DNA of 64,000 nt from an uncultured Bacilli bacterium (GCA_934095865.1 CAKOKU010000001.1:10812-74811), one strand, 5' to 3'; shown: positions 10,575-62,569, counted from the stretch's first letter. The notes: generated by a model not told the origin, from the letters alone. Made by a program: numbers and translations.

Positions 10575-10615
10575 AATTTAAATGTTATAATAAACCTATA
10601 ATAGGAGTTGATTTT

Positions 10616-25095: not shown

Positions 25096-25154
25096 ATAAT
25101 ATTTTGACTTTTTAGAAAATTTCTTTATAATATAGCTTACGGAGGTTTTTAGCA

Positions 25155-26864
25155 TTGAATAATATGAAAAAAAGACTAACATCGTTATTATTGGTGTTCT
25201 GCATCACGGTAAGTAATACGGGATGTAAGGTCTTTAAGCGTGCTAAAAATGACATAGAACTTAATGATTCTAGTGTTTCAGTTAGTGATATTGAGGCTAG
25301 TAATACAGAATTAGAAATTGCCTTTAGAGAATTTGTATCTTCCTTAGATAAAGTCGATGGTGTTGATAAAAAAATCCATTTTACAAAAAAAGAAGAGATA
25401 GAAATAACTACTTTGACTCCAACTCATGCTTGTGTTTATGAGTTTACGGGAACTGGACTAGATTTAATTGAATTAATAGAACAAAATACTGGCGAGTATT
25501 TAGAAGCACATAGTGAATATAAGAGCTTTTTTGATGATAGTTATATGAGTGAGGAGTCTTATGTAAATTACTTTGGGTTGGAACTTAATGAAGATGATAT
25601 CAAAAGAGTAAAAGAAGTTATGGCTGATGCCTTATACAATAAAGTGTTGTATGTCTTAAATAATGATACTGATGATGATGTTCATAAGTTAGCAACTTTA
25701 AGCATTGTGTTTGTAGAAGACTTTGCTAATTCCAATAGCAACTTTAGAACATATGGCGTGTATGAAAATAGTGAGAATGTTATTAAGATTTCTTTAAAAA
25801 ATATTTTGGATAGTTCAAATAGCTATTTTCGGGTAATTCAATCAGCTTATAATGCTGCTGCTCATGAACTAAGTCATATTGATGATTATGCTTGCTCTGA
25901 TCGATTGTTAGCTGGTGATAACGAAAAGATAGATTTTTTGAATAGAGAGTTTGTATCTTCACTAAGAGAAGCTGAAAATTCTAGTTTTCAACAAAGTGGC
26001 ATGGTAGATAATCCTTGGCGTACTTATATGTCATCATCCGATTATTGTTATGATAGCTTTCGCCAATTTGAATCATGTTTATTTTTAACTAATGCTTTTG
26101 ATAAAGATAAGACAATTGCTGATTATTATTTAGCTTTTAAGAGTAGTGATTTATCAAAATTATATGAATATTTTTCTCTGATGACTAAAGAAGAGCAAAT
26201 AGAATTTATTAAAATAATTTATGCTTATGATGCCACTCAGGCCAGAAACAATTATGCAGCTAGTTTTACTAGTGAAGATGCTAAAGAAAGATATTGGCAA
26301 GTTGAAGATAGTTTAGAAAAAAGTTATTTTATTAGTATTTTAAAGATGGCCTTGATTAATTTGGCTCAATATAATGTTAATAATGAAGGGGATTTAAACT
26401 GTAAAGATAACTTGATGCTTTATTATTATATTATGATTACTATTGCAGATAATGCAGCTTTAGCTGATGTAGATAGTAATGGGGAGGCAGTAGTTTATTT
26501 TTATGATAGTTTTTGTCGTAATTATAAACAGATTGAGGAAAGCTTTTTCAGATTTTTAAGTGCTTGTTATGGAATGTCAGTGGAAGAAGTTCAAGAAATG
26601 TATAAAAAAACTTCAAGTGATGAATTACTGACTAAGATAAATAAGATAGATTGTTATGATGAAAATAAGTTAACAAGAATTGGTCGGCTTTTTGATAAGT
26701 TTAGCAATTTAAAGGTTGCTTTAAGAAGCCGAGATAAAGATATAGATACAGGGTTAATGATAGATAATATTTGGTTACAAGTTTTAGAGCAGCTTAATGA
26801 TTATGATGATGAAAAGCAAAATATATTAGGGTTAAATGTAGTAAGGAGAAATTATCATGAATAA
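25155..26864 (+). CDS. Lipoprotein with HExxH motif, paralogue 2
   Basis: Lipobox-like LLLVFCITVSNTGC. HELSH at 25863-25877. TTG start 9 nt after GGAGG (alternative ATG at 25164). Confidence 0.6.
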   Translation: MNNMKKRLTSLLLVFCITVSNTGCKVFKRAKNDIELNDSSVSVSDIEASNTELEIAFREFVSSLDKVDGVDKKIHFTKKEEIEITTLTPTHACVYEFTGTGLDLIELIEQNTGEYLEAHSEYKSFFDDSYMSEESYVNYFGLELNEDDIKRVKEVMADALYNKVLYVLNNDTDDDVHKLATLSIVFVEDFANSNSNFRTYGVYENSENVIKISLKNILDSSNSYFRVIQSAYNAAAHELSHIDDYACSDRLLAGDNEKIDFLNREFVSSLREAENSSFQQSGMVDNPWRTYMSSSDYCYDSFRQFESCLFLTNAFDKDKTIADYYLAFKSSDLSKLYEYFSLMTKEEQIEFIKIIYAYDATQARNNYAASFTSEDAKERYWQVEDSLEKSYFISILKMALINLAQYNVNNEGDLNCKDNLMLYYYIMITIADNAALADVDSNGEAVVYFYDSFCRNYKQIEESFFRFLSACYGMSVEEVQEMYKKTSSDELLTKINKIDCYDENKLTRIGRLFDKFSNLKVALRSRDKDIDTGLMIDNIWLQVLEQLNDYDDEKQNILGLNVVRRNYHE

Positions 26865-28602
26865 TAATATGAGTTATGGTGAAAAATCGATTGAAAAAAG
26901 AAGAAAACAAGAGGCTAAGAGAAATAAAATTTTAGGATCAATTGCTTTAGTGGTTGCTATTAATGTGGCTTTAGTAAGTGCTTATTTACATGGTGGTGTT
27001 GGTGCTGTCTTAGCAGCGGTCAAGAAAAATAAGAGTGAAGATGAAGAATCTGCAATTGCTTTAATGACAACTTCTGCTAGAGTTACTGGCGATGGTATTT
27101 CTGAGAATAATGATTTTAGTGAAATTTTATTTTTAAGTCAAAAAGAACAAGAAGAATTGTTAAGAAGAATTAATGATGGTTATCAAGATAAATGTACTTT
27201 TGAAAAAGAATGCAGTGCTGCTGATATAGTTAATACTATCATGAGTAATAGTGCTGATTTTGCTAGTAATCATCCTGGTTATTTATCACTATTTGATTAT
27301 GAAGGGTTAGCTTCTTATATTTTAACTAATGATATTGATATAGATGATTTTGATACGGCTATGAAAGCTATGACTACTGGGGTAATTTTTGTTGTTAAAG
27401 ATGCTTGTGCCAAATATGATGATGGTGTGATTGGCTCTAAAAGTGATATTCACAATTTAATGGATGTAAAGTTGGTACTAGATATTGAAGGTAAGAATCA
27501 AGTTGATGATGTTAATTGTATTGCCATTGACTATAAAGGTATTACTAGCCAAATAGAGGATAATCAACAGAAAAAGGTTGTTTATAATAGCGCTTTTATG
27601 GAATTAATGATTAGTAAACTTACTCGTATTATTCAACGTGATTGTCCTGAGTATGGAGCCGAGTCTAAAGTGTTGACTTATGATAGTGAGGTAGTTCCTT
27701 TTATACTAGATACTAGTACTATAAGTGTAATACCTAATTATTATGGTATAACATTGTCTAATAATTTTGATAAGACTTTACTTTTTGAAAGAAATGCTGA
27801 AGCCAAGCTTCTATTGCTTACTTTATTTGATAGAGATAAAGATATAAGTTGGTATTATAATGCTATAAATAAAAATGATTTAGCGAGCTTTTGTGAATAT
27901 TTTGGAGCTAATAGTAGTGAAGAACAACTTAGATTGTTTAATTTAATTGCCTCATATGATGCGGTTTATATGAGAAATTCTTATTATAAGAAAGTTAGAA
28001 ATATGCTTGATTTAACTGATTATACATCTTATGCTAAGGAAAAATTGGCTCAAAGAGTAGAAGATAAAATTGATTTTAGTAATGATGCTACTATTTTAGG
28101 TATTGCTATTGATAAAATGATTACAGATGCTAATAGCCACGCAGATTTGAGCATGATAGATTATTTTGACTTATTTGATTTTGTTTCTAGTGTTGCTTTT
28201 GCTGATACTTATTCTTCAGATAGTACTATGTCATTTGACGTATCTGATACTTTAATTGCCAAATATTTTGAACTTAAAGATAAATTTATTAAATCTATGG
28301 CAGTAAGATATGATTGTTCATTGGAAGATGCTTTAAACGCTTATGAAAATAATCGTCATAATTCATTATTTTTCTCATCTTTAGCTTATAAATCCGGTAG
28401 TGTTTATTATGATCCATCTGTTAGCTTGGACGATTATCCTTTCTTAGCAGATCAATACAGCTCTTCAAAAGGTGTATGTGATGATCTTTTAAAAGTATTT
28501 GGCAATTTAGATGATATTGCTAGATTATGTCCTAACTTTTATAAAGGCGTTCCAGAAAATGTTTTAGAATCTGGTAAAAAATTAAATAAAGATTTAAATT
28601 AA
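26857..28602 (+). CDS. Membrane-anchored paralogue 3 with degenerate metal site (MELMI in place of HExxH)
   Basis: Overlaps the upstream gene by 8 nt (AAGGAG RBS). N-terminal TM ILGSIALVVAINVALVSAYL without a lipobox Cys. MELMI at 27598-27612 aligns with the HExxH of its paralogues. Confidence 0.6.
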   Translation: MNNNMSYGEKSIEKRRKQEAKRNKILGSIALVVAINVALVSAYLHGGVGAVLAAVKKNKSEDEESAIALMTTSARVTGDGISENNDFSEILFLSQKEQEELLRRINDGYQDKCTFEKECSAADIVNTIMSNSADFASNHPGYLSLFDYEGLASYILTNDIDIDDFDTAMKAMTTGVIFVVKDACAKYDDGVIGSKSDIHNLMDVKLVLDIEGKNQVDDVNCIAIDYKGITSQIEDNQQKKVVYNSAFMELMISKLTRIIQRDCPEYGAESKVLTYDSEVVPFILDTSTISVIPNYYGITLSNNFDKTLLFERNAEAKLLLLTLFDRDKDISWYYNAINKNDLASFCEYFGANSSEEQLRLFNLIASYDAVYMRNSYYKKVRNMLDLTDYTSYAKEKLAQRVEDKIDFSNDATILGIAIDKMITDANSHADLSMIDYFDLFDFVSSVAFADTYSSDSTMSFDVSDTLIAKYFELKDKFIKSMAVRYDCSLEDALNAYENNRHNSLFFSSLAYKSGSVYYDPSVSLDDYPFLADQYSSSKGVCDDLLKVFGNLDDIARLCPNFYKGVPENVLESGKKLNKDLN

Positions 28603-28630
28603 AATAATATTTATTTTGTTTCTATTTGAA

Positions 28631-28661
28631 TATCTGTTTTTAAAAAGACAGGTATTTTTTT
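28631..28661 (+). terminator. Rho-independent terminator candidate
   Basis: TATCTGTTTTT / AAAAAGACAGGTA imperfect stem followed by TTTTTTT. Confidence 0.45.
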
Positions 28662-28695
28662 CTGCTTAATGGATATAATATATAATCTTTTTTTG

Positions 28696-28720
28696 TTCAT
28701 AGAGTTACATACTCTATGAA
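28696..28720. repeat. Perfect 10-bp-stem hairpin, copy A (TTCATAGAGT-TACAT-ACTCTATGAA)
   Basis: The 25-nt sequence recurs as its exact reverse complement at 28958-28982. Confidence 0.9.
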
Positions 28721-28816
28721 TACGTAATTACGTGCATCTATTCTTAATTTCTATTGTAATTTTACCATATTTTAAACACTTTTGGTACCTAATAAAATGC
28801 TTTTTAGTGTAAATTA

Positions 28817-28924
28817 TAGTCAATTTTGTAGTCAAAAAATTTGGATAAATCAGTTAAAAATACTTAAATGAAATGGGATTTAATAAAAATCTAAATAAAT
28901 AATTTTTAGTCAAATTTATAGTCA
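28817..28924 (+). repeat. Two pairs of TAGTCA direct repeats, each pair with 12-nt register
   Basis: TAGTCA at 28817, 28829, 28907 and 28919. GTACCTAAT direct repeat at 28785 and 28946. Confidence 0.8.
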
Positions 28925-28957
28925 GATTACTGTTTTAATTAGTGAGTACCTAATGTT

Positions 28958-28982
28958 TTCATAGAGTATGTAACTCTATGAA
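28958..28982. repeat. Hairpin copy B (TTCATAGAGT-ATGTA-ACTCTATGAA), reverse complement of copy A
   Basis: Identical stem with the loop inverted relative to copy A. The two copies are separated by 237 nt. Confidence 0.9.
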
Positions 28983-29062
28983 AAGTACACTTTAAGAAAA
29001 CAAAAAGCGACAAAAGCATAGATTTCTTAATTTATGGAATAATAAATATGAAAGGGATTATT

Positions 29063-31069
29063 ATGAAGAATAAGAAATTATGGTTAGTTGGTACTCTAAG
29101 TATATTTGGCTTGGCTTTGATTATTGGAACATCGTATGCGTATTGGCGATTTAGTAAAATCAGTGATGGTAGTAATGCTGCCTTGTCTGGATGTTTTAGT
29201 GTATCACTTTCTAATGAAGCTAATGCTATAAGTTTGGAAAATGCTTATCCAATAAGTGATGAAGATGGCAAGAAACTAAAGCCATATAGCTTTACAATAA
29301 CTAATACTTGTAGTATTTTTGCTAAATATTATGTTAATTTAGAAATGCTTGAAGGTACAACTTTAAATAGTAAATATGTTGCAGTAAGGGTTAATAATGA
29401 GAATATTCAATTACTTAGTGAATTTAATGAAGATACAAATAAAAGCTTATCTACGAGTACAGAAGCAAGGACTTTAGCTACTGGGTATTTAGGCTCTGGT
29501 GATTCAATAGATTATAGTGTAGCTTTTTGGATGGATGAAAGTGTTACTATTAATGATACCGATGCAATGAATAAGAATTTTAAAAGTAAGATTATGGTAA
29601 AAGCAGAACCTAGTAGTTATTCACCAGTTGATTCTGGGTATAACACATTGCATGATGCCATTTTAGCTAATGAATATCAAACGACACCAGAGATTGCAAT
29701 TGAGAAAATCAAGGCTAAGCAAAGTTCTAGTATAACAGATAATGGTGATGGGACTTATACAGTGACTAATACAGCCCCGATTATTAAGTGGACATCTGTT
29801 ATAGGTGATGCTGTTACGAAAGATATTGTTAAACCATCGATTGATGCGATTAAATCAGATTCTCAAACTGTTGACTTGACTGAAAACGATGTTAAGTTGA
29901 AATTTTATAAAAATATTTCGTTTAATACAGATACAGGAAAGTATACTTTATCTGATCCTATTTATGTTGAACCAGATTTATTAAGCTATGATGAATCGAC
30001 TCATTATTATTTTAAAAATGAATATATATCATATAATTATTCGACCAAAAAGTTGTATACCGTTGTAGAAAATGATGGTATAAGTGTATATGAAGTAACT
30101 GGTGCATATAAAACTGATACAAAAACTATTTGGAATGGCATCGAATATTCTGCATTAAATTATAAATTGTCTTTAGTGACTATGACTGAATCAGAATTAG
30201 AAACAGATAAGTCTGACAAAGGCTTGTATGCTGGTACAGATGATTATGGTACAACCTACTATTATAGAGGAAATGTAAAAAATAATAATGTTTATTTTGC
30301 TGGCTATTATTGGCAAGTAGTAAGAATAAATGGTGATGGTTCAATTAGATTAATGTATAATGGACAAGTAAAAAATGCGTCTGGTATTGACCAATCGATT
30401 AACAATAAATTATATCAATTTAATGTTTCTTATAATTCCCCTGCATATGTAGGTTATATGTATGGAGATATAAATGCTTCAAATTTTGAAGCTGTTCATA
30501 AAAATGAAAATTCATCTACTGTGAAAAAGGTTATTGATTCTTGGTATACGAGTAATATTGTTAAAAATGATTATTCAAGTTATGTATCCATCAACGCTGG
30601 TTTTTGTGGAGATAGAAGTATTTATAGCGGTGATGGTATTAAAATTGATAAATCTACGGCATTTAGTTCTTTGTGGCGTCGTTTGAATCAAATTTTTCAA
30701 TTTAAGTGTTCTAATATGAACAATGATTTGTATACTGCCTCTGAATCAAATATAGGTAATAAATCTTTAACATATCCAGTAGGTTTAGTGACGTATGACG
30801 AATTGGTTTTAGCAGGTTTAAACGATCAGCAATTAAATAAGTTATCTTACGCATATTCTTCACAAAATTATTGGACTATGACGCCTGGTAGTTTCAGTTC
30901 AACATTTGGGTATGCTTATGCGTGGCGTAGTGACAATCCTGGTTTTCTTTCATATCGTTGGGTAAATATGAGTAATAGTGTTCGTCCTGTTATTAACTTA
31001 AAGGCCGACGTTGAAATAACTGAAGGCATAGGTACGGCCAATGACCCTTATGTAATAAAAACAGAATAA
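29063..31069 (+). CDS. Large secreted protein: SipW-type signal peptide, TasA/camelysin-like N-terminal domain, C-terminal surface domain
   Basis: MKNKKLWLVGTLSIFGLALIIGTSYAYW matches the GT-x-AYF SipW-cognate signal class. ENAYPISD...YSFTITNTCSIFAKYYVNL resembles the TasA/M73 beta-sandwich. The C-terminus YWTMTP...VRPVINLKADVEITEGIGTANDPYVI resembles a DUF6273-like surface domain (from memory). Start at 29063 (AAAGGGA RBS); 29048 is the alternative. Confidence 0.6.
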   Translation: MKNKKLWLVGTLSIFGLALIIGTSYAYWRFSKISDGSNAALSGCFSVSLSNEANAISLENAYPISDEDGKKLKPYSFTITNTCSIFAKYYVNLEMLEGTTLNSKYVAVRVNNENIQLLSEFNEDTNKSLSTSTEARTLATGYLGSGDSIDYSVAFWMDESVTINDTDAMNKNFKSKIMVKAEPSSYSPVDSGYNTLHDAILANEYQTTPEIAIEKIKAKQSSSITDNGDGTYTVTNTAPIIKWTSVIGDAVTKDIVKPSIDAIKSDSQTVDLTENDVKLKFYKNISFNTDTGKYTLSDPIYVEPDLLSYDESTHYYFKNEYISYNYSTKKLYTVVENDGISVYEVTGAYKTDTKTIWNGIEYSALNYKLSLVTMTESELETDKSDKGLYAGTDDYGTTYYYRGNVKNNNVYFAGYYWQVVRINGDGSIRLMYNGQVKNASGIDQSINNKLYQFNVSYNSPAYVGYMYGDINASNFEAVHKNENSSTVKKVIDSWYTSNIVKNDYSSYVSINAGFCGDRSIYSGDGIKIDKSTAFSSLWRRLNQIFQFKCSNMNNDLYTASESNIGNKSLTYPVGLVTYDELVLAGLNDQQLNKLSYAYSSQNYWTMTPGSFSSTFGYAYAWRSDNPGFLSYRWVNMSNSVRPVINLKADVEITEGIGTANDPYVIKTE

Positions 31070-50452: not shown

Positions 50453-51838
50453 ATGGTTGATGACGAAAAAAAGAAGAAAAACAAGTGGATTGTTTTAGGA
50501 AGTATTATTTTGTTAATTCTTTTAGGGTTGTGGGTTAGTTTTTATACATTGATGAATAATCCTAAATATGTGATAACAAAATCTATAACCAAGACTTTTA
50601 GTGTGGTAAAACAAGAAGTTAAAAATGAGTCTTTGTTTGCTAATGACACTTTTAGTTTTAACGTAAAGGCCTCTTTTGGTGGAGATACTCTTAGTGGTGC
50701 TTTAGATGGTGATGTTTTAAAACTTGGTGGTTATTTAGACCGAACAAATAAAAGATTAAGTTTGAATGGTCGCTTAATTGAAGATGATAAAACATTGCTT
50801 GATGGTGTTTTGACAATTAAAGATGATGAAAAATATGTTAGCAGTGCCAATTTATTTGATAATATTTATAGTTTGAAAAATTATGCTTGTGATGATGATT
50901 CTATAATTTGTGATTTTTTAAAAGCTGACTTTTTTGATGGAAATTATAATTATAATTTGGAAGAAATATTAACTGATTTTGAACAGGCTTTTAAAAAGAG
51001 TATAGATAATAATAATGTATTTCGTAATAAAGGTTCCTTTAAAGATAGTAATGCAAATTATAATAAGTATACATATAAATTAAATAAAGATACTTTGAAT
51101 GATATTTATAGTAGATTAAATGATGATAGTAAGAAATTATTATATGATGTTTATTATTTCATTAGTGATGCTGAAGATGTTAATGATGCCAAGTTACTTT
51201 TAGAAAGTGATATTAATAATTGGACAGATAGTTTAGAATTTAATATTTATACAAATGGTTTATTAAATGAATTTAAGGCTTTAGAAATAGGTAATAATGA
51301 TTCTTTTATTAATATAGAGTATAGTAGGGATGATAATGATCTAGTTATTCGTGTACCTGAATATAATATTAAAGTTGATGTATTAGCTAGTAACAATGAG
51401 ATAACAACTACTTTGTATTATAAAAATACTTTATTAGCCCGTGAAATAAAAAAGCTTGAAGATTCTAAAGAAACGATTGATGTCGAAATTTCTTTGATGG
51501 GGGCAAATTTTACTGCCAAGATTATTCATAATTATACTAAGGATAGAACTTCCGTAAATGGTTCATATGATGCGACAATAGATGCTAATTTCTTGTTCTT
51601 TGATTTTAATGGGACGGGAAATATAGAATATAATGTTAGTAAAAATATAGATTCTGGTTATATTGATGTTGGTAAGGCTATTGATATAAATGAATTTACT
51701 AAGGAAGATAATGAGAAACTAGAAAGTACTTTAAATGATTTCTTTAAATCAAGAATTGGTAGCAATATTAGTGATATCTTTGGTGATGGAATTGATGTTG
51801 ATGACGGTATTGATGACTATTTTAGTTTAGAGGCATAA
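50453..51838 (+). CDS. Hypothetical membrane-anchored protein (D/N-rich ectodomain)
   Basis: 461-aa ORF with one N-terminal TM (WIVLGSIILLILLGLWVSFYTL). No motif recognised. Confidence 0.55.
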   Translation: MVDDEKKKKNKWIVLGSIILLILLGLWVSFYTLMNNPKYVITKSITKTFSVVKQEVKNESLFANDTFSFNVKASFGGDTLSGALDGDVLKLGGYLDRTNKRLSLNGRLIEDDKTLLDGVLTIKDDEKYVSSANLFDNIYSLKNYACDDDSIICDFLKADFFDGNYNYNLEEILTDFEQAFKKSIDNNNVFRNKGSFKDSNANYNKYTYKLNKDTLNDIYSRLNDDSKKLLYDVYYFISDAEDVNDAKLLLESDINNWTDSLEFNIYTNGLLNEFKALEIGNNDSFINIEYSRDDNDLVIRVPEYNIKVDVLASNNEITTTLYYKNTLLAREIKKLEDSKETIDVEISLMGANFTAKIIHNYTKDRTSVNGSYDATIDANFLFFDFNGTGNIEYNVSKNIDSGYIDVGKAIDINEFTKEDNEKLESTLNDFFKSRIGSNISDIFGDGIDVDDGIDDYFSLEA

Positions 51839-51877
51839 AAAAATTAGTTTGCAGAAAATGCAAGCTAATTTTTTTTG
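51836..51877. terminator. Bidirectional terminator between convergent genes
   Basis: AATTAGTTTGCA-gaaaa-TGCAAGCTAATT, flanked by an A-run upstream and a T-run downstream. Confidence 0.65.
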
Positions 51878-52347
51878 CTATCAGTGGAACCAAAACCACC
51901 TTTTCTAACTCCCGTAGCATTATCATCATCAGTGATTAAATATTTTTGGAAGATAACTTGACCAATTATATCTCCTTTTTTGATAATTAAATCTTCGGTA
52001 CCAAAGTTCCAGTATTGAAAGAAGAAATGACCATCATTAGTTTCATTACAGTAATAATCAGCATCTATAATTCCAATTGAATTACTCATCATAAATCCCT
52101 TTTTAGGGCCACTACTACGATTTACTAACATATAGAACTCATCTTTTTGACAATATGCTTTAAGACCAGTAGGTATAAGGGTTGGCTTATCTCCATGCTT
52201 GTATGGAGGTATTACAATATCTTCGGCAGCTTCAATATCATAACCAGCTGCGGCCGCAGTTTTTCTTACAGGAATGTGAATATCTTTATCTTCATATCCT
52301 TTAGCAATTTCAAATCCTCTTAATTTCATTTTAATTCTCACTTTCAT
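51865..52347 (-). CDS. dut: dUTP diphosphatase (trimeric dUTPase family)
   Basis: AAAGYDI, NSIGIIDADY, GGFGSTD motifs. The alternative start at 52329 would remove the overlap with nrdG. Confidence 0.85.
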   Translation of the reverse strand: MKVRIKMKLRGFEIAKGYEDKDIHIPVRKTAAAAGYDIEAAEDIVIPPYKHGDKPTLIPTGLKAYCQKDEFYMLVNRSSGPKKGFMMSNSIGIIDADYYCNETNDGHFFFQYWNFGTEDLIIKKGDIIGQVIFQKYLITDDDNATGVRKGGFGSTDSKKN

Positions 52348-52831
52348 ATAATATTATTTTATTGGCTTTTAGTGTTTTTTGAATGTCGATTACTCTTTGA
52401 TTAGAAGAGCCACACCATTTTAATCTTGGGTCGTGTAGTTCTTCTTTGAATTGACCGTCGATTAGAACATCTATATAATTCAAAGCTTCTTTGTTAGGTA
52501 TATTTTCAAATAAATAGCCGGTCCACAACCATATTGTTTTGTTTGGGTATTTTTCTTTAAAAGCTTTGGCTAATTCTTTTGTTGCTTCGATGGTATTAGG
52601 ATGTAATGGTTCACCACCTAAGATTGATAGACCTTTAATATAATCATCTTTAGCTAGATTAATTATTTCTGCTATTTCGTTATTAGTAAAGTCTTGTCCT
52701 TCGTTGAAATCCCATGTTTCTTTATTAAAACAACCTTTACAATGAAAAGGGCAACCTTGCATGAAGATTGAAACCCTTACACCAGGACCATTAGCAATGT
52801 CCATTTTTCTTATTTTATTAAATTTTGCCAT
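52331..52831 (-). CDS. nrdG: Anaerobic ribonucleoside-triphosphate reductase activating protein (radical SAM)
   Basis: GCPFHCKGCFN cluster motif; directly downstream of nrdD. Confidence 0.9.
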   Translation of the reverse strand: MAKFNKIRKMDIANGPGVRVSIFMQGCPFHCKGCFNKETWDFNEGQDFTNNEIAEIINLAKDDYIKGLSILGGEPLHPNTIEATKELAKAFKEKYPNKTIWLWTGYLFENIPNKEALNYIDVLIDGQFKEELHDPRLKWCGSSNQRVIDIQKTLKANKIILYESEN

Positions 52832-52833
52832 GG

Positions 52834-54987
52834 TTAGGCATCCTTATTATCAATATGAATAACACGGTCTTTTATCTCTTGGGTACGGCCTTTATTCCAG
52901 AAGTTAGTACCAATATAACCGCAAGTACGACGCGCAACATTTAACTTATTGTGATCACGATTACCGCAATTAGGGCAATACCATTCTAAATTGTCATCAA
53001 TAAGAATTTCACCTGTATAACCACATTCATGGCAATAATCACTTTTAGTATTTAATTCAGCATACATTATGTTGTTGTAAATAAATTTGATTACTTCTAA
53101 GACAGCGTCTAAATTATTTGTTAAGTTTGCTGTTTCTACATAACTAATAGCTCCACCTGGACTTAATTTTTGGAATTCACTTTCTAATTTTAATTTAGAG
53201 AAAGCATCAATTTCTTCAAATACAGGAACGTGATAAGAGTTGGTAATGTAATTTCTATCAGTGATTCCTTTAATAACGCCAAATCTTTCTTTTAAGCACT
53301 TAGCAAATTTATAAGTAGTAGCTTCAATTGGTGTGCCGTAAACTGAGTAATCAATGTCTTCAGCATTTTTCCATTCGTTACATTTATCTACTAATTTTTG
53401 CATTACTTTAAGGCCAAATTCTCTTCCTTCAGCGCCATCAGTGTGGCTTTTTCCAGTCATAAATTTAACACATTCGTAAAGTCCGGCATATCCTAGAGAT
53501 ATTGTTGAATATCCGTGATGTAGTAAATCGTGAATTGATTCGCCTTTTTTTAAACGGGCAAGGGCTCCGTGTTGCCATAATATTGGAGCGACATCACTGG
53601 TAACCTTTGATAATCTCTTATGTCTTATTTGAAGAGCACGATGACATAATTCTAATCTTTCATCCATTAAACGCCAGAATGTATCCATATCTTTATCACT
53701 AGAAAGGGCAACATCAACTAAATTTAGTGTAACAACACCTTGGTTGAAGCGACCATAATATTTTGGCTTGCCATTTTCATCAACATATGGAGTTAAGAAA
53801 CTACGACATCCCATGCATGGATAGCAGTTACCATTACCATTTTTATCAATTTTATTAGCTTTCATGATTTTTTCTGAAATATAGTCAGGTACCATACGTT
53901 TTGCTGTACATTCAGCGGCTAATTTAGTTAAGTAGTAGTATTTGCCATCAGGATTAATATTATCTTCTTCTAAGATATATAATAATTTAGGGAAGGCTGG
54001 CGTTATATATACGCCTTTTTCGTTTTTCATCCCTTGAATTCTTTGACGTAATACTTCTTCAATTAACATGGCAAGCTCTTCTTTGTATTCAGTAGTTTCT
54101 CCTAGGTACATACATACTGATAAGAATGGGGCTTGACCGTTAGTTGTTGTCATCGAATTAATTTGATATTGGAAAGTTTGAACACCATCGGTAATTTCCT
54201 TTTTTAAATCCTCATCGACAAATTTAGCAATTTGAGCTTTAGTTAGTTTTCTTTCTTTGTACTTTTTCTCATAATATTCTTTACTTGATCTAATAAATGG
54301 AGCTAGATGAGTTAAGGTTACGGTGCAGCCACCATATTGACTAGAGTTAACAGCAGTAATAATTTGAGTAGCAATTGTCATTGCCGTTAGGAAACGATGG
54401 GGTTTTTCAATCATAACGCCATTGATACTTGTACCATTTTGAAGCATATCATCTAGGTCGATTAAGTCGCAGTTGTGTAGTGCATTTTGTGCAAAATAGT
54501 CGGCATCATGGAAATGAATGATTCCGGCATCATGAGCTGCAACAATATCTTCTGGTAATAAGAAACGACGTGTAATATCTGTGCTGGTAATGCCTGCTAG
54601 ATAATCTCTTTGAGTTGTTACTATCTTAGCATTTTTGTTAGAATTTTCAGTGTTCCAATATTCAGATTCACCGTCAATAAGTTCTTTAATAGCTAAATCA
54701 GTAGTATTACTTCTTCTAACTAATTCTCTTGTGTAACGGTAAGTAATATATTTTTTGGCTAATTCGTATTTACCAATACTCATTAGTTTGACTTCAATTA
54801 TATCTTGAATGTCTTCAACTAAAATACGTTTTTTACCAAGTCTTTCTATATATTTAATAATATTTTTAATTTGAATTGGAGAGGCTTGATCTTCTTCTTC
54901 AACTTCATAATTAGCCTTATTAATAGCAGCTTCGATTTTTTCTGGGCACCAATCTACCATGTGTCCGTCTCTTTTAATAACTTTCAT
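52834..54987 (-). CDS. nrdD: Anaerobic ribonucleoside-triphosphate reductase
   Basis: ATP-cone MKVIKRDGHMV, C-terminal Zn ribbon CHECGY...CPNCG, and glycyl-radical motif RRTCGYIG. Start at 54987 (AAAGGG RBS). Confidence 0.93.
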   Translation of the reverse strand: MKVIKRDGHMVDWCPEKIEAAINKANYEVEEEDQASPIQIKNIIKYIERLGKKRILVEDIQDIIEVKLMSIGKYELAKKYITYRYTRELVRRSNTTDLAIKELIDGESEYWNTENSNKNAKIVTTQRDYLAGITSTDITRRFLLPEDIVAAHDAGIIHFHDADYFAQNALHNCDLIDLDDMLQNGTSINGVMIEKPHRFLTAMTIATQIITAVNSSQYGGCTVTLTHLAPFIRSSKEYYEKKYKERKLTKAQIAKFVDEDLKKEITDGVQTFQYQINSMTTTNGQAPFLSVCMYLGETTEYKEELAMLIEEVLRQRIQGMKNEKGVYITPAFPKLLYILEEDNINPDGKYYYLTKLAAECTAKRMVPDYISEKIMKANKIDKNGNGNCYPCMGCRSFLTPYVDENGKPKYYGRFNQGVVTLNLVDVALSSDKDMDTFWRLMDERLELCHRALQIRHKRLSKVTSDVAPILWQHGALARLKKGESIHDLLHHGYSTISLGYAGLYECVKFMTGKSHTDGAEGREFGLKVMQKLVDKCNEWKNAEDIDYSVYGTPIEATTYKFAKCLKERFGVIKGITDRNYITNSYHVPVFEEIDAFSKLKLESEFQKLSPGGAISYVETANLTNNLDAVLEVIKFIYNNIMYAELNTKSDYCHECGYTGEILIDDNLEWYCPNCGNRDHNKLNVARRTCGYIGTNFWNKGRTQEIKDRVIHIDNKDA

Positions 54988-55037
54988 ATAATACCCTTTC
55001 ATGAACATCTTCAATATATCATATCTTCATATTATCA

Positions 55038-55057
55038 ATTGTTGCAATTGCAACAAT
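55038..55057. promoter_or_regulatory. Perfect 20-bp palindrome ATTGTTGCAATTGCAACAAT in the nrdD / crp-like divergent region (candidate operator)
   Basis: Reverse complement identical to itself. Contains TGTTG-N6-CAACA, a CRP/FNR-type 5-6-5 layout. Confidence 0.5.
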
Positions 55058-55097
55058 GATTAATTTTTGGTATATTTTTATTCAGAGGTGTGTCAAT

Positions 55098-55730
55098 ATG
55101 GTTTCATTGTTTCAAAATATAACTCTAAATGAAAAGGGGAAAATTCTTAAATTATTAAACACTACTATCTTTACATATCAAAAAGGTGTAAATGTTTCTT
55201 ATTCATTTAATGACAGTGAGACGGTTGGGGTTATTTTAGAAGGCTCTTTAGATATTGTTAGAATAGATTACAATGGTAATCGAACGATTATAGATACAGT
55301 TTATGAAGATGAACTGTTTGGTAGTTCTATAACTAGTATTATAAATAATGATTATGAGATAGTAACCAAAGAAGAAGTTAGGATTTTATGGATAGATTAT
55401 AATCATATTTTAAAAAATAGTGATACTTCTTTAGCTTATAATCAGTTTTTAAAAAATTTATTATCTATTCTTTTAGAATACAATATTTTAAAAAATGAAC
55501 GAATTGAAATATTAACCCAAAAAACAATCAGAAATAAATTACTAGAATATTTTCGTTTAACTGTTCAAAAAAATAAATCTAAAGTAATTTATTTAAAGAG
55601 TACATGGCAAGATTTGGCTGATTATTTAGCCATTGATCGTTCGGCAATGAGTAGGGAGCTAAAGAATTTAAAGGATGAAGGGTTTATTATAGTTAAAGGT
55701 CGTGTTATTACGCTTTGTTATACTTTTTAG
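55098..55730 (+). CDS. Crp/Fnr-family transcriptional regulator (no N-terminal Cys cluster)
   Basis: cNMP-binding-like beta-roll, then HTH TWQDLADYLAIDRSAMSRELKNLKDEGFI. Start at 55098 (AGAGGTG RBS). Confidence 0.8.
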   Translation: MVSLFQNITLNEKGKILKLLNTTIFTYQKGVNVSYSFNDSETVGVILEGSLDIVRIDYNGNRTIIDTVYEDELFGSSITSIINNDYEIVTKEEVRILWIDYNHILKNSDTSLAYNQFLKNLLSILLEYNILKNERIEILTQKTIRNKLLEYFRLTVQKNKSKVIYLKSTWQDLADYLAIDRSAMSRELKNLKDEGFIIVKGRVITLCYTF

Positions 55731-55831
55731 AAAATTGATGTTTGTTATTTAATTAAGGTTTTAAGATTTATTCTTAAGGCTTTTTTTATAAAATTATTCT
55801 TTAAACATATACTTATTTAGGTGATGTCTAT

Positions 55832-56911
55832 TTGAAGAAAATTGATTATAAGTTATTAATTTTAAGTATTATTGCTGGATTTTTAGGAATTGTGATGATT
55901 TATTCAGCTAGTAATGTTTGGGCCGAGTATAAATTTAATGATCCCTTAAAGTATGTTAAACATCAATTTTTGTTTTATATTATAGGCATATTAATTATGT
56001 TATTTTTATCTAAAATAGATTATCAGAAATATTATAAGTATGCAAATAAAATACTGTTTGTCTGTTTTGTTCTTTTGGTACTAGTGCTTATTCCTGGTGT
56101 TGGTAAGGTAAGAAATGGGGCACGAAGTTGGTTTGGCATCGGTTCTTTTGGCATTCAACCATCAGAGTTTGCTAAAATAGGATTGATAATTTTTGTTTCT
56201 AAGTATTTAGCTAATAATGATAAGAGTGTTAAAGATGTTGTTAAGGGTTTATTTCCTATTTTAGGCATTATTTTTCTTTTCTTTGGACTTATTATGTTGG
56301 AACCTGATTTTGGTCAAGGGATGGTTATTGTTTTAACCTTGATAATGATAATTTTTATTTCTGGTGCCAATGTATCTTTTTTTGTTAAGTGTGGTATTTT
56401 AGGTTTATTTGGTATTGTTGGTCTTATTATAGTTGCGCCATACCGTTTAGCACGTATTATTTCTTTTGTTAATCCATGGGTAGATCCTTTAGGAAGTGGC
56501 TTTCAAATCATTCAAAGTCTTTATGCCATTGGACCCGGTGGCTTGTTGGGACTTGGTTTTGGTTCATCTATTCAAAAACATTTTTATTTGCCAGAACCCC
56601 AAACTGATTTTATTTTTTCGATTATTTCTGAAGAATTTGGCTTTTTAGGAGTATTATTTGTAACGGGAATCTTCTTTTTATTATTTTATTTTGCTATGAA
56701 AATTAGTTTACGTGCTAAGAATTTATTTGCTAAATATTTAGTCTTTGGCTTAGCTTTTGGCATTTTAATTCAAGCTTTACTTAATTTATGTGTTGTTGTC
56801 GGCTTAATTCCTGTAACAGGTGTTACCCTTCCTTTCTTTAGTTATGGTGGCTCTAGTTTATTAGTTTCTTTTGCTTCTATTGGCATAATTTTAAATGCTA
56901 GTAAAGATTAA
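55832..56911 (+). CDS. SEDS-family peptidoglycan glycosyltransferase (FtsW/RodA/SpoVE)
   Basis: TTG start after AGGTGA. QPSEFAK, EPDFG, PEPQTDFIFS, GVTLPFFSYGGSS motifs. Confidence 0.9.
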   Translation: MKKIDYKLLILSIIAGFLGIVMIYSASNVWAEYKFNDPLKYVKHQFLFYIIGILIMLFLSKIDYQKYYKYANKILFVCFVLLVLVLIPGVGKVRNGARSWFGIGSFGIQPSEFAKIGLIIFVSKYLANNDKSVKDVVKGLFPILGIIFLFFGLIMLEPDFGQGMVIVLTLIMIIFISGANVSFFVKCGILGLFGIVGLIIVAPYRLARIISFVNPWVDPLGSGFQIIQSLYAIGPGGLLGLGFGSSIQKHFYLPEPQTDFIFSIISEEFGFLGVLFVTGIFFLLFYFAMKISLRAKNLFAKYLVFGLAFGILIQALLNLCVVVGLIPVTGVTLPFFSYGGSSLLVSFASIGIILNASKD

Positions 56912-58678: not shown

Positions 58679-59695
58679 ATGATTAAAGTTGCAATTAATG
58701 GTTTTGGAAGAATTGGCCGTTTGGCTTTTAGAGAAATGATTACTAGTAAAGATTTAGATGTTGTTGCTATTAATGATTTATCAAGTAGTGAAGAATTATG
58801 TTATTTATTAAAGTATGATTCTAATCATCGTAGTTTTCATGAAAATGAGATAAGTTTTGATGATGATAATTTGATTATTGCTGGGGTTAAAAAGGTAAAG
58901 ATATTTAGCCAAAAAGATCCTGTTAATTTGCCTTGGCGTGATTTGGGGGTTGATGTTGTCTTAGAGTGTAGTGGCCATTTTACTAAAGTCGAGGATGCTA
59001 ATAAGCATATTATAGCGGGCGCTAAAAGTGTTATCATTTCGGCACCTTGTAAGGGTAATGCTAAAACAATTGTTTATAATGTTAATAACAGTACGTTAGA
59101 TGGTAGTGAACAAATTATCTCGGCGGCTTCTTGCACAACTAACTGTTTGGCTCCGGTAATTGATGTGATTGAAAAAAATATTGGCGTCGTTTGTGGCTCA
59201 ATGAGTACAATTCATGCTTATACGAACGATCAAGCGACTTTAGATATAACTCATCAAAAAGGAATTTATGCCCGTCGTGGTCGTGCTTGTGCGATGAATA
59301 TTGTTCCTGCTAGTACAGGAGCAGCAAGTGCGATTGGTAAAGTAATCCCATCTTTAGAAGGTAAAATTATAGGTAAGGCTTTTAGAGTTCCCGTTTCCGA
59401 TGGTTCAATGATAGATTTAACTTTAGAATTAAAAAAAGAAGTAACGAAAGAAGAACTAAATCGTTTATTTATTAACAACGCCAATGAAACTTTGAGAGTA
59501 ACTAATGATCCTATTGTTTCTAGTGATTGTATTGGTAAGAAATGTGGGGCCATTGTCGATTTATTATCAACAGAAGTTTTAAAAAGTGGTGATAAGACTT
59601 TGTGCAAAGTTGTAGCTTGGTATGATAATGAGGTTGGTTACACTCATCAGATGATTGAAACTTTAAGATATTTTATGAGTTTGAAAAAAAATTAA
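58679..59695 (+). CDS. gap: Glyceraldehyde-3-phosphate dehydrogenase
   Basis: NGFGRIGR, active site ASCTTNCLAP, WYDNEVGY. Confidence 0.95.
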   Translation: MIKVAINGFGRIGRLAFREMITSKDLDVVAINDLSSSEELCYLLKYDSNHRSFHENEISFDDDNLIIAGVKKVKIFSQKDPVNLPWRDLGVDVVLECSGHFTKVEDANKHIIAGAKSVIISAPCKGNAKTIVYNVNNSTLDGSEQIISAASCTTNCLAPVIDVIEKNIGVVCGSMSTIHAYTNDQATLDITHQKGIYARRGRACAMNIVPASTGAASAIGKVIPSLEGKIIGKAFRVPVSDGSMIDLTLELKKEVTKEELNRLFINNANETLRVTNDPIVSSDCIGKKCGAIVDLLSTEVLKSGDKTLCKVVAWYDNEVGYTHQMIETLRYFMSLKKN

Positions 59696-59886
59696 AAAAA
59701 TAAGTCGAATTTTGTTGAAAATTTACTAAAAATGATAACTTTGTGTCGAGAATATGTAATTTTTCTGAAAATAAAGATTATTTACAGTTTTTTAGGGATA
59801 TATTTGGTATAATTGTTGATGTTTATTTGGAAGAAAAATAAATAATAGAAAAAGGAGAAATGTATTTAATATACATATAATAAAAA

Positions 59887-60480
59887 ATGAAAAATGAAGA
59901 AAATAAGGGGTCGCATTATTTTAATAATACAAGGGTGTGTATTATAGATGCTGATGGTCAACCTATCAATTTTTGTATGAGTGAACAAGAGTTTAGACAA
60001 CATTATGGTGATGGAAGTTATTCTTATCATGGACAAACTTTGAAAAGCGCTGTTATGTGGAAGATGGGTCGTGATGATTTTCCGTTTACTGATTTATATC
60101 CAGTAAATATGGCTTTACAATTAGCCGAAACTTTTAAATGGGCTTCGGTTATGGTAGCTCCAATTGCAGAAGCTTCGCCAGAAATATTTGGAACGGTTGT
60201 TTTACCAAAGGGTGAAGAAATAACAGATGCACAAGAGCAAGCTGTAATAGGCTATTTAGAAGCGACTTCTTCAAAAGGCGGTTTTACAGGACTACCACCT
60301 TTAAAATTTGGTGAAGGTGTTTTAGTGTATAAAGCACAAAGTAACGAACTTGATAATGTTGGACCAGTTATAATTGGGTCGTCTCCTGAAGGCCATTTGC
60401 CAAAAGAGATATTAGAAGAAACTATTAATTCTTTTAGAGGAATAACTTTAGAACAACAAGGTGTTTTAAAAAGAGCTTAG
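59887..60480 (+). CDS. Hypothetical protein (197 aa) inserted between gap and pgk
   Basis: Long ORF with coding-like composition and no motif recognised. It has no SD of its own and is preceded by a six-codon mini-ORF (59860-59880) that has a strong SD. Confidence 0.55.
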   Translation: MKNEENKGSHYFNNTRVCIIDADGQPINFCMSEQEFRQHYGDGSYSYHGQTLKSAVMWKMGRDDFPFTDLYPVNMALQLAETFKWASVMVAPIAEASPEIFGTVVLPKGEEITDAQEQAVIGYLEATSSKGGFTGLPPLKFGEGVLVYKAQSNELDNVGPVIIGSSPEGHLPKEILEETINSFRGITLEQQGVLKRA

Positions 60481-60502
60481 TTAAAATTTAAGAAAGGCAG
60501 TA

Positions 60503-61708
60503 TTGAAGATGAAATGTTTATTACAAGAAATGGATGTTAAAAATAAAAGGGTAATAGTTCGTTGTGATTTTAATGTACCGGTAAGTAATGGTAAAATTCT
60601 TGATGATACTAAGATTAAAGCTTCGTTAGAAACTATTAATTATTTAATACAAAATGATTGTAAAATTATATTATTGTCGCATTTTGGTAAAGTTAAGACT
60701 GAAAGTGATAAGCAAAAATATAGTTTAAAAATTGTTGCTAAACGTTTAAATGAGTTAGTATCCACTAATGTAATATTTTCACCGGAAACAAGGAGTAGCT
60801 TTTTAGAATTAAAAGTTATGGATTTACAACCAAAAGATATTTTATTGGTAGAAAATACTCGTTTTGAGGATGTTCCTAATGGCTTTGAGAGTAATAATGA
60901 TCCTCAATTGGCTGCTTATTTTGCTTCTTTAGGTGATATCTTTGTTTTAGATGCCTTTGCTAGTAGTCATCGTCTACACGCCTCAACTAGTGGTATTGCT
61001 AAGTTTATACCTAGTTGTTTAGGATTTTGTGTTCAAAAGGAAATGAATATGCTTGATAAGTATGTTTTGAATGCTAAAAGACCATTTTGTATTGTTATGG
61101 GTGGCGCTAAAATTGATGATAAACTTTTATTGATGGAAAAGCTATTGTCTAAATGCGATTATATGCTTTTAACTGGGGGTCTTGCTAATAGTGTACTTAA
61201 ATCTTTAGGTCTTAATGTTGGTGAGTCTTTAGCTACTAATGATTTGAAAATGCTTTCTGATGTAAAAGAAATGCTAATAAAATATCACAAGAAGATTGTG
61301 TTACCATTTGATGCTATTGTTGGTAGAAAATATGATGATAATTTTGCTGATGCACGTGATATTAATAAAATAGGTGTTGATGAAGTTATTGGAGATATTG
61401 GCCCAAAGACTTTAAATCAATATAGTAAAATATTTAATACGGCTGCGACTATTTTTGTTAATGGTACTGCTGGTAAATATGAAGATCCTAGATTTAGTAA
61501 TGGCACTTTAGAATTATTCAATGCTTTAAGTAATTGTAGCGCCGATGTTGTTTTAGGCGGTGGTGATTGTGTCAGTGCCGCTAATAAATTCCATATGGCT
61601 GATAAGTTTACTTATACTTCAACTGGTGGTGGTGCAACATTGGAATATATAATTAATGACACTTTGCCAGCGATTGAAGCTATAATGGATAAAGAAGAAA
61701 CTTTATAA
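60503..61708 (+). CDS. pgk: Phosphoglycerate kinase
   Basis: KRVIVRCDFNVP, HFGK, ENTRF, GGGD motifs. The start could instead be the ATG at 60509. Confidence 0.93.
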   Translation: MKMKCLLQEMDVKNKRVIVRCDFNVPVSNGKILDDTKIKASLETINYLIQNDCKIILLSHFGKVKTESDKQKYSLKIVAKRLNELVSTNVIFSPETRSSFLELKVMDLQPKDILLVENTRFEDVPNGFESNNDPQLAAYFASLGDIFVLDAFASSHRLHASTSGIAKFIPSCLGFCVQKEMNMLDKYVLNAKRPFCIVMGGAKIDDKLLLMEKLLSKCDYMLLTGGLANSVLKSLGLNVGESLATNDLKMLSDVKEMLIKYHKKIVLPFDAIVGRKYDDNFADARDINKIGVDEVIGDIGPKTLNQYSKIFNTAATIFVNGTAGKYEDPRFSNGTLELFNALSNCSADVVLGGGDCVSAANKFHMADKFTYTSTGGGATLEYIINDTLPAIEAIMDKEETL

Positions 61709-61801
61709 GAATTTGTTCGACAAATTATGTCAAAATAATTTGTAGGTATTTAGTAACTTTTGCTTTATAATGAATATAGGTAGTATGAAAGGGAAAAAAT
61801 A

Positions 61802-62569
61802 ATGATTAATGTACTTATGATAGATGAAGTATCTAGTATTAAGGCAGTAAAAACATATTTGAGTAGTAAAAGTAGTACCAATGTTAATATAAAGTATAGT
61901 TGTTCTGATGGCCTAGAGGCTGTTAATTTAATAAAAAAAGAAAAAGATAATATTGATTGTATCATTATGGGAATGATTTTACCTTCGTTGGATGGTATGG
62001 GTATTTTAAAATTTTTAAAAAATGAAAATATAGATAAAAAAGTTATAATTTATACTTATAATAATAATTTGTCTTTATTACAAACTTTGAATTCATATAA
62101 TGTTGTTTTCTACTTATTTAAAAATGTTGATTTAAGTATTTTAGAAGAAAGAGTAAATGATGCTTGTGCAATATCAATGAATAATGATTTTAATTTAAGT
62201 GTAAGCAAAAGCAGTAAAAAGACCAAAGAAATATCTAAATTATTACATGAGCTTGGAATGCCTAGTCATATTAAAGGATATCAATATATTAGAGATTCTA
62301 TTGAAATGATGTATAAGAATCCTTCGACATTTGGTGGAATAACAAAAGAAGTTTATCCATATATAGCTGATAAATATAATACAACACCATCAAGAGTGGA
62401 AAGAGCAATTAGACATGCTATTGAAGTTAGTTGGACGAGGGGTGATTATGATTTAATGGAAGAAATCTTTGGTCATTCAGTAGATTTTGATCGAGCTAAA
62501 CCAACTAATTCAGAGTTTTTGGCAACCTTAGCGGATAAACTTTGTATTGATAATCATGTTAATGTTTAA
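61802..62569 (+). CDS. spo0A: Spo0A-family sporulation transcription factor with atypical receiver (Gly at the phospho-acceptor position)
   Basis: The C-terminal Spo0A signature is nearly invariant: HIKGYQYIRDSI, TPSRVERAIRHAIEVSWTRG, KPTNSEF. The receiver reads DCIIMGMILPSLDG where B. subtilis has DVLVLDIIMPHLDG. Confidence 0.85.
   Translation: MINVLMIDEVSSIKAVKTYLSSKSSTNVNIKYSCSDGLEAVNLIKKEKDNIDCIIMGMILPSLDGMGILKFLKNENIDKKVIIYTYNNNLSLLQTLNSYNVVFYLFKNVDLSILEERVNDACAISMNNDFNLSVSKSSKKTKEISKLLHELGMPSHIKGYQYIRDSIEMMYKNPSTFGGITKEVYPYIADKYNTTPSRVERAIRHAIEVSWTRGDYDLMEEIFGHSVDFDRAKPTNSEFLATLADKLCIDNHVNV

Follow-up and report, generated by a model that had tools for sequence, protein, structure and literature searches.

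Endospore formation is taken to be triggered universally by phosphorylation of Spo0A on its receiver aspartate (e.g., PMC3485338). How such a regulator may operate once this residue is missing is the question raised by a stretch of 64,000 nucleotides from an uncultured Bacilli bacterium (GCA_934095865.1, CAKOKU010000001.1:10812-74811; the whole stretch is referred to as the window), in which a spo0A gene close to the downstream end encodes a glycine at the phospho-acceptor position. A preliminary description of this DNA had proposed that the gene product is a Spo0A orthologue with Gly57 in place of Asp56 of Bacillus subtilis, which could not be activated by the usual Asp phosphorylation. Our analysis suggests that the protein is probably a Spo0A with an aspartate-less receiver that works without Asp phosphorylation; its independence of phosphorylation, the function of its receiver and its control over sporulation are what we infer from the comparisons described here.

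The open reading frame (ORF) is the organism's Spo0A orthologue. The full Pfam model Spo0A_C (PF08769) was covered by residues 144-247 (E 5.7e-41), and residues 8-118 matched Response_reg (PF00072; E 3.1e-12). In addition, the NCBIfam equivalog TIGR02875 (spore_0_A) was passed marginally, with 210 bits versus a cutoff of 200. In phmmer searches the C-terminal domain matched the Spo0A DNA-binding domains of B. subtilis and Geobacillus stearothermophilus (1lq1 and 1fc3; E 1e-38); their recognition helix, SRVERAIRHAIEV, was unchanged in the window Spo0A. The AlphaFold2 model (mean predicted local distance difference test score, pLDDT, 88) displayed a (beta-alpha)5 receiver with five strand/helix pairs. 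Foldseek comparisons of this model gave a template modelling score (TM) of 0.91 and a root mean square deviation of 1.5 A with the Spo0A receiver 5wq0, and a TM of 0.88 for the DNA-binding domain with 1lq1. One member of the 90% identity cluster of the protein (MDD5835921.1) is named 'sporulation transcription factor Spo0A' at NCBI. The orthology originally proposed was thus borne out by the Spo0A_C and TIGR02875 matches and also by the position of the locus described below.

The assignment of Gly57 to the acceptor position was confirmed by pairwise, multiple and structure-based alignment. In the phmmer alignment, the window segment DCIIMGMILPSLDG was paired ungapped and with high posterior probability with the segment DLVLLDMKIPGMDG of Spo0F from the Protein Data Bank (PDB), placing Gly57 opposite the acceptor Asp. 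MAFFT alignments were built first on 122 and then on 202 unique Spo0A homologues with B. subtilis Spo0A added; in both, G57 occupies the Asp56 column, between the invariant D52 and P61-x-x-D64-G65. In the AlphaFold2 model, strand beta3 comprises residues 53-56 and is immediately followed by G57, which thus stands where the acceptor is canonically found; the local pLDDT is 96. Structure-aware alignment had been named beforehand as the comparison that could overturn the assignment; it did not place an Asp at the acceptor position, and Gly57 stands. D52 is conserved across all Spo0A proteins, canonical ones included, and in the model it just precedes beta3, at the end far from the pocket. Misalignment, or D52 as the acceptor, was ruled out by the phmmer, MAFFT and AlphaFold2 placements.

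The glycine codon itself was also found in independent assemblies. The same protein, without a single substitution, is found on 19 contigs obtained from independent samples. Three of these contigs show 6, 7 and 11 nucleotide differences from the window, and codon 57 is GGA in each. As these contigs were found via exact protein identity, the all-synonymous pattern of their strain differences is biased, and the survey of cluster variants was used instead. The 90% cluster comprises 10 distinct protein variants, all of which carry G57 and have an intact reading frame; they differ mostly in the interdomain linker (positions 133, 136 and 137) and otherwise by conservative substitutions (K46E, F71L, V109I). 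An Asp codon was the other outcome named beforehand as overturning the Gly; codon 57 was instead GGA in seven assemblies differing at other sites. Together with the 10 variants this ruled out a sequencing or assembly error. Gly57 is fixed in the species, and phosphorylation at the canonical Asp is therefore impossible, in agreement with the preliminary description.

Also other residues of the pocket have changed. D8, E9, T85 and K107 are present, as had been noted early on for the acidic pair and the candidate Thr and Lys positions; the second acidic residue, however, is Glu, and the Pro following the Lys is replaced by Asn. Across the alignment D8 is invariant, whereas at the second acidic position 99% of the canonical relatives have Asp and the Asp-less clade has Glu. 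The conserved Lys occurs in 201/202 sequences; the next residue is Pro in 100% of the canonical relatives and Gly, Asn or Ser in the remodelled clade. A column-by-column comparison revealed that remodelling extends to relatives that still bear the acceptor Asp: S or N stands in place of the second acidic residue (D11 in B. subtilis), T or S in place of the hydrophobic helix-alpha1 residue corresponding to L15 of B. subtilis, P or T in place of the L following the acceptor, and F in place of Y104. The Pro after K108 is lost in most of these sequences (58-100% by group), while D10, T/S86 and K108 (B. subtilis numbering) are retained throughout. The alpha1 position is part of the phosphodonor docking surface in the Spo0F:Spo0B complex, which may be of relevance here. 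We read this pattern as a step-by-step loss of the phosphotransfer pocket, after which the Asp, no longer needed, was freely replaced.

To what extent the loss is shared was apparent from the acceptor column of the 202 unique sequences, which the preliminary description had proposed to inspect and which contains D in 126, S in 40, N in 31, G in 2 and E in 2 cases. The closest genomes are metagenome-assembled genomes (MAGs) of uncultured gut Bacilli, including 'Mycoplasma sp. CAG:956' and 'Coprobacillus sp. CAG:605', which we take to belong to the order RF39 of the Genome Taxonomy Database (GTDB). The window species has Gly (GGA). Ser (TCA, TCT or TCC) is found in CAG:956 and its other closest relatives, which are 69-75% identical to it, and Glu in a basal member of this clade; the codons of the Asp (GAT/GAC), Ser (TCN) and Gly (GGA) states are distinct. 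The sister group of the Glu/Gly/Ser clade, to which CAG:605 belongs, kept the Asp in the unusual context 'MDTILPSLDG'. In another, separate clade (about 32 sequences) the acceptor is replaced by Asn ('LLNPVLP'), and nearly all other RF39-type species display the canonical pattern 'DDN...LDLIMPxKDG...T...KP'. The aspartate-less RF39-type clade is large and abundant: its clusters comprise 84-133 members, and its contigs were recovered from hundreds of samples.

On a neighbour-joining tree, seven changes of the acceptor state were needed by Fitch parsimony. The Glu/Gly/Ser group was monophyletic in 73/100 bootstraps, and in 93/100 together with its Asp-bearing sister group. The Asn clade excluded the Glu/Gly/Ser group in 100/100 bootstraps, with Asp-bearing lineages in between, and the acceptor was therefore lost at least twice independently, plus in two singletons. 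As judged from these sequences, loss of the aspartate is a trait of clades and not of a single species. A grouping of all sequences with a remodelled pocket was monophyletic in 0/100 bootstraps and was rejected, so that only the better-supported sub-clades are claimed. As Glu, Gly and Ser vary among close orthologues whose receivers are otherwise conserved, no specific chemistry appears to be needed at the acceptor site. Within the Asn clade, two nested sequences (L008 and P0085) have Asp at the acceptor (GAT in L008), which could be explained by a one-base reversal from AAT to GAT or by an incorrect tree.

The aspartate-less receiver is under purifying selection as strong as that in its canonical relatives. 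The ratio of nonsynonymous to synonymous divergence (dN/dS, Nei-Gojobori) was determined for close species pairs only, as dS is saturated beyond these. With pooled dS, receiver values for close Ser-type pairs were 0.018-0.034; with dS calculated per domain and the L001/L002 pair included, the Asp-less pairs ranged from 0.027 to 0.059. Close canonical Asp-Asp pairs gave 0.017-0.07 for the receiver. The DNA-binding domain of close Asp-less pairs was at 0-0.026. The Gly lineage is not accelerated, because receiver dN was 0.213 between the window and the Ser-type locus L001, compared with 0.237 for the Ser-Ser pair L001-L003. Low dN/dS and intact reading frames in all variants ruled out a pseudogene or decaying gene.

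The genomic position of spo0A also identifies it as the counterpart of the canonical gene. The gene order in the window is gap - a 197-aa ORF - pgk - spo0A - rimP - nusA - infB, and pgk was located upstream of spo0A in 71/80 species-representative loci (L001-L080). Canonical relatives have pgk-...-tpiA-spo0A, and others spo0A-gpmI. A glycolytic cluster gap-pgk-(tpiA)-spo0A-gpmI thus houses spo0A in canonical and Asp-less RF39-type species alike, and from this common position the aspartate-less gene is the positional orthologue of canonical RF39-type spo0A. In the window species, in which the cluster up to spo0A lies at 58679-62569, rimP-nusA-infB stands downstream of spo0A instead of gpmI.

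The region upstream of the gene contains a perfect 0A box, the binding motif of Spo0A (Table 1). A perfect box in the same orientation was present within 300 nt upstream of spo0A in 77/85 loci, almost always between -60 and -140, compared with a background of 0.04 per 300 nt; these loci include every Gly and every Ser locus. In the alignment of eight diverged intergenic regions (A3), the 0A box, an adjacent CAAAA element and a TATAAT were invariant, whereas the remainder had drifted. The CAAAA is the core of a near-0A-box element that faces the perfect box; apart from this core, only one further A two bases 3' of it was invariant among the eight species, and the element may represent a second half-site. 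A scan for consensus promoters and terminators did not call the spo0A promoter, owing to a weak -35, and found no terminator. Window-wide, 0A boxes were not significantly enriched (six versus 3.3 expected; 9/100 shuffles reached six), and only the box upstream of spo0A is intergenic. The significance of this box thus derives from its conservation across loci. Since selection has maintained the binding site, the aspartate-less protein would be expected still to bind DNA at predicted 0A boxes, including that of its own promoter. A consensus 0A box is similarly located at -75 upstream of spo0A in Clostridioides difficile, where it is tightly bound by the DNA-binding domain (PMC3485338).

Table 1. 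Positions of spo0A, its domains and pocket codons, its upstream elements and gerQ in the window.
Feature	Coordinates	Strand	Remarks and basis
gerQ, spore coat protein, PF09671	43573..43989	-	no other spore-specific gene was detected in the window
Perfect 0A box (TGTCGAA on the minus strand)	61716..61722	-	start 86 nt upstream of the spo0A ATG; conserved across loci
TGTCAAA near-0A-box element	61728..61734	+	5 bp from the perfect box, facing it; alignment A3
TATAAT, probable -10 of the spo0A promoter	61766..61771	+	invariant in A3; conservation alone
spo0A coding sequence	61802..62569	+	255 aa plus stop, ATG start; ORF call, Pfam, TIGR02875
Receiver (REC) domain without acceptor Asp, residues 1-123	61802..62170	+	AlphaFold2 model, Foldseek; dN/dS 0.02-0.06 among Asp-less species
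Codons D8-E9, remnant of the acidic pair (B. subtilis D10-D11)	61823..61828	+	alignment columns
Codon 57, GGA = Gly, phospho-acceptor position (B. subtilis Asp56)	61970..61972	+	three alignments, 7 assemblies, 10 cluster variants
Codon T85 (ACT), conserved Thr/Ser switch position (B. subtilis T86)	62054..62056	+	alignment and sequence
Codons K107-N108, Lys kept, usual Pro replaced by Asn	62120..62125	+	alignment; K107 = AAA, 62120-62122
Spo0A_C DNA-binding/transactivation domain, residues 142-251	62225..62554	+	phmmer, Foldseek; dN/dS 0-0.03

We propose that the receiver has evolved into an aspartate-less receiver whose canonical site is unable to accept a phosphoryl group, while the DNA-binding domain would still recognise 0A boxes, that of its own promoter included. 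The receiver would keep its fold under selection, probably as a module for dimerisation or partner binding, and activity would be set by the amount of protein through autoregulated transcription, by interactions with proteins or ligands, or by both, without a kinase or phosphorelay. The process may have started at the base of the wider RF39-type clade, where the Mg-binding second Asp, the hydrophobic alpha1 residue and the Pro after the Lys would have been lost first. The acceptor Asp would then have become dispensable and been replaced several times, by Asn and by Glu, Gly or Ser. Of the two implications drawn in the preliminary description, phosphorylation-independent control is the one favoured by our results, whereas decay of the gene is disfavoured by purifying selection, the kept 0A box and the conserved gerQ. 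Several points weigh against this proposal. The source organism is uncultured, the TIGR02875 margin of the ORF is small, and all trees are neighbour-joining trees. The selection estimates are confined to the closest pairs, and the 19 contigs carry the bias of their retrieval. The pocket may bind something, given that D8, T85 and K107 have stayed conserved; a kinase could in principle target the Ser of the sister species; and Spo0A is present also in species that do not form spores (PMC3533761).

Whether the regulator still governs sporulation was considered from the gene content. The preliminary description had pointed to gerQ, whiA and a SEDS gene; all three are present, but only gerQ is spore-specific. 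The SEDS protein scored best with spoVE but remained just below the cutoff (439 versus 448.8 bits) and passed that of ftsW, so that this gene, like whiA, provides no evidence of sporulation. Homologues of GerQ are 80-86% identical across the clade and occur on hundreds of contigs. A gerQ locus collinear with the window was found to overlap, with 98-99% nucleotide identity, the spo0A locus of CAG:956, so gerQ has also been retained in the Ser-type species. Pfam and NCBIfam scans of the window ORFs identified no further sporulation genes beyond gerQ, and none were found in the approximately 10 kb past each window end as seen on other contigs. We tentatively suggest, as a possibility somewhat short of probable, that a widespread RF39-type clade from human and animal guts starts endospore formation without input from a phosphorelay or kinase, entry occurring via the abundance of autoregulated Spo0A, a new partner of the receiver, or both, and that the phospho-switch had been given up at the origin of this clade before the acceptor Asp was repeatedly lost. 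The regulator may instead have been kept in a lineage that does not sporulate and been repurposed for other stationary-phase or host-adaptation genes. The small genomes would fit this explanation, as cultured spore-formers below 2.3 Mb are unknown except for Arthromitus, and thirty non-spore-formers encode Spo0A (Galperin et al.; PMC3533761). Also the reported absence of spoIIE, spoIIAB and other genes from RF39 (PMC10868615) and the finding of a single spore-specific gene in the approximately 84 kb examined point in this direction. However, the same study predicts RF39 to form spores (PMC10868615), and gerQ is intact and conserved at the level given above. Repurposing therefore appears unlikely, and, as it concerns the output of the regulator, it would be compatible with a phosphorylation-independent mechanism.

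A switch that persists elsewhere in the protein would oppose phosphorylation independence more directly, for example a Ser/Thr kinase acting on Ser57 of the sister species or on T85, or phosphorylation of D8 or D52. The Ser at the site in the sister clade, the conservation of D8, T85, K107 and D52 and the presence of two hybrid histidine kinases in the window would be in line with such a switch. However, Gly, Ser and Glu alternate among close and otherwise conserved orthologues, which leaves no single chemistry and argues against a replacement such as Ser phosphorylation; Gly cannot be phosphorylated at all. D52 is located far from the pocket in the model and is shared with canonical Spo0A, and neither the second Mg-binding acidic residue nor the Lys-Pro motif has been kept, which renders a relocated switch quite improbable. 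It is very unlikely that a canonical Asp-containing paralogue elsewhere in the genome carries out the actual function. Aspartate-less REC-Spo0A_C proteins do occur sporadically elsewhere, but the gene occupies the same glycolytic-cluster position and has the same promoter 0A box as canonical RF39 spo0A, and a non-exhaustive scan found no second locus for the seven closest genomes within the 80 best matches. An inactive relic on its way to loss might be suspected from the missing catalytic residue and the marginal TIGR02875 score. With dN/dS at 0.02-0.06 for the receiver and no higher than 0.03 for the DNA-binding domain, intact frames in all variants and conserved promoter elements, this is extremely improbable. 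The chance that the apparent Gly results from an error in sequencing, assembly or alignment is negligible, given GGA in seven differing assemblies, G57 in 10 variants and the agreement of three alignment methods. Thus, a Spo0A acting through an aspartate-less receiver is the explanation we prefer.

Some further observations were made on the window and in the surveys. Two hybrid histidine kinases (HisKA-HATPase_c-receiver; 759 and 765 aa) are encoded at 7289-9568 and 10562-12859 on the plus strand, flanking an acyltransferase gene; the genome therefore still has components of His-Asp signalling. Compared with collinear sister species (L100, L102/L103), the window harbours an extra block at 51865-56911, between a 461-aa ORF and a PRK-domain gene, which comprises dut-nrdG-nrdD on the minus strand, a Crp-like regulator and the FtsW/SpoVE-like SEDS gene. 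Four consecutive large ORFs of 551, 569, 581 and 673 aa (23440-31069, plus strand) had no Pfam match at E 1e-5. Similarly, no Pfam match was obtained for the ORFs 755-2575, 15029-16636 and 50453-51838, the last of which had no NCBIfam match either. A scan of 1.84 billion cluster representatives yielded 107 full-length 50%-identity representatives most similar to the window Spo0A (P0130-P0262), 21 of which have no Asp at the acceptor; the replacements were E, N, S, G, C, R and P, plus one gap. In many of these 21 the DNA-binding domain is 55-70% identical to that of B. subtilis. Their clusters are small (1-8 members), and one of them is annotated as Spo0A [Clostridia bacterium]. In addition, four metagenomic proteins of 394-454 aa (P0121, P0122, P0123, P0126) lack a receiver and instead carry Spo0A_C domains in tandem, three or four per protein; by their predicted domain content they are receiver-less, covalently multimerised Spo0A DNA-binding domains.

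A natural Asp-less Spo0A orthologue under purifying selection, in a clade found in many gut metagenomes, indicates that the master regulator can be rewired, and it raises the question which signal tells gut bacteria with minimal genomes to sporulate. The natural Gly, Ser, Glu, Asn and Asp variants, which share the same DNA-binding domain and promoter box, offer a system to dissect roles of the receiver that do not depend on phosphate. They also call for caution in genome-based prediction of sporulation, as the presence of spo0A or a TIGR02875 match is silent on whether the phospho-switch is intact.

The window protein shares two-domain architecture, recognition helix and fold with the canonical Spo0A of B. 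subtilis, G. stearothermophilus and C. difficile (1LQ1, 1FC3, 5WQ0), and its gene is likewise preceded by an 0A box, as in C. difficile (-75). Unlike canonical Spo0A, it has Gly for Asp56, Glu as second acidic residue, Asn for the Pro after the Lys and a shorter interdomain linker. The gene resides in a glycolytic cluster (gap-pgk-spo0A), whereas spo0A in Bacillus and Clostridium is usually located downstream of spoIVB. The B. subtilis variant sad67 is a bypass form of Spo0A with a receiver deletion; such bypass forms are laboratory constructs, whereas the window Spo0A keeps a full-length, conserved receiver in nature. The isolated DNA-binding domain of Spo0A binds its targets without phosphorylation once the inhibition by the receiver is removed (PMC3485338).

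Among other response regulators, the Streptomyces proteins WhiI and BldM control a sporulation-type development, have a degenerate phosphorylation pocket and act without phosphorylation; they belong to Actinobacteria, have an output domain of the NarL/FixJ type, heterodimerise and show no homology to Spo0A beyond the receiver fold. Atypical regulators with aspartate-less receivers (ALRs) are exemplified by ChxR, HP1043, RitR and FrzS. In the survey by Maule et al. (2015), Gly, Ser, Asn and Glu were common replacements of the acceptor, and S6 Table of that study counts, without comment, 7 ALRs among 391 Response_reg~Spo0A_C proteins (PMC4395418). Apart from this count, no published description of aspartate-less or atypical Spo0A orthologues was found by full-text searches of the literature. 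Like the ALR regulators, the window Spo0A has a receiver fold without the acceptor Asp in a domain under selection, implying a role other than phosphoryl transfer. Other metagenomic REC-Spo0A_C proteins also lack the acceptor Asp, many of them with a conserved DNA-binding domain, but their clusters are tiny (1-8 members) compared with those of the RF39 clade (84-133). Spo0A and aspartate-less receivers are thus both known kinds, and the new aspect suggested here is the loss of the acceptor, throughout an abundant clade of gut bacteria, in the positional orthologue of the master regulator: unlike in other ALR regulators, the output domain is Spo0A_C, and the aspartate-less protein holds the place of the master regulator throughout the clade.

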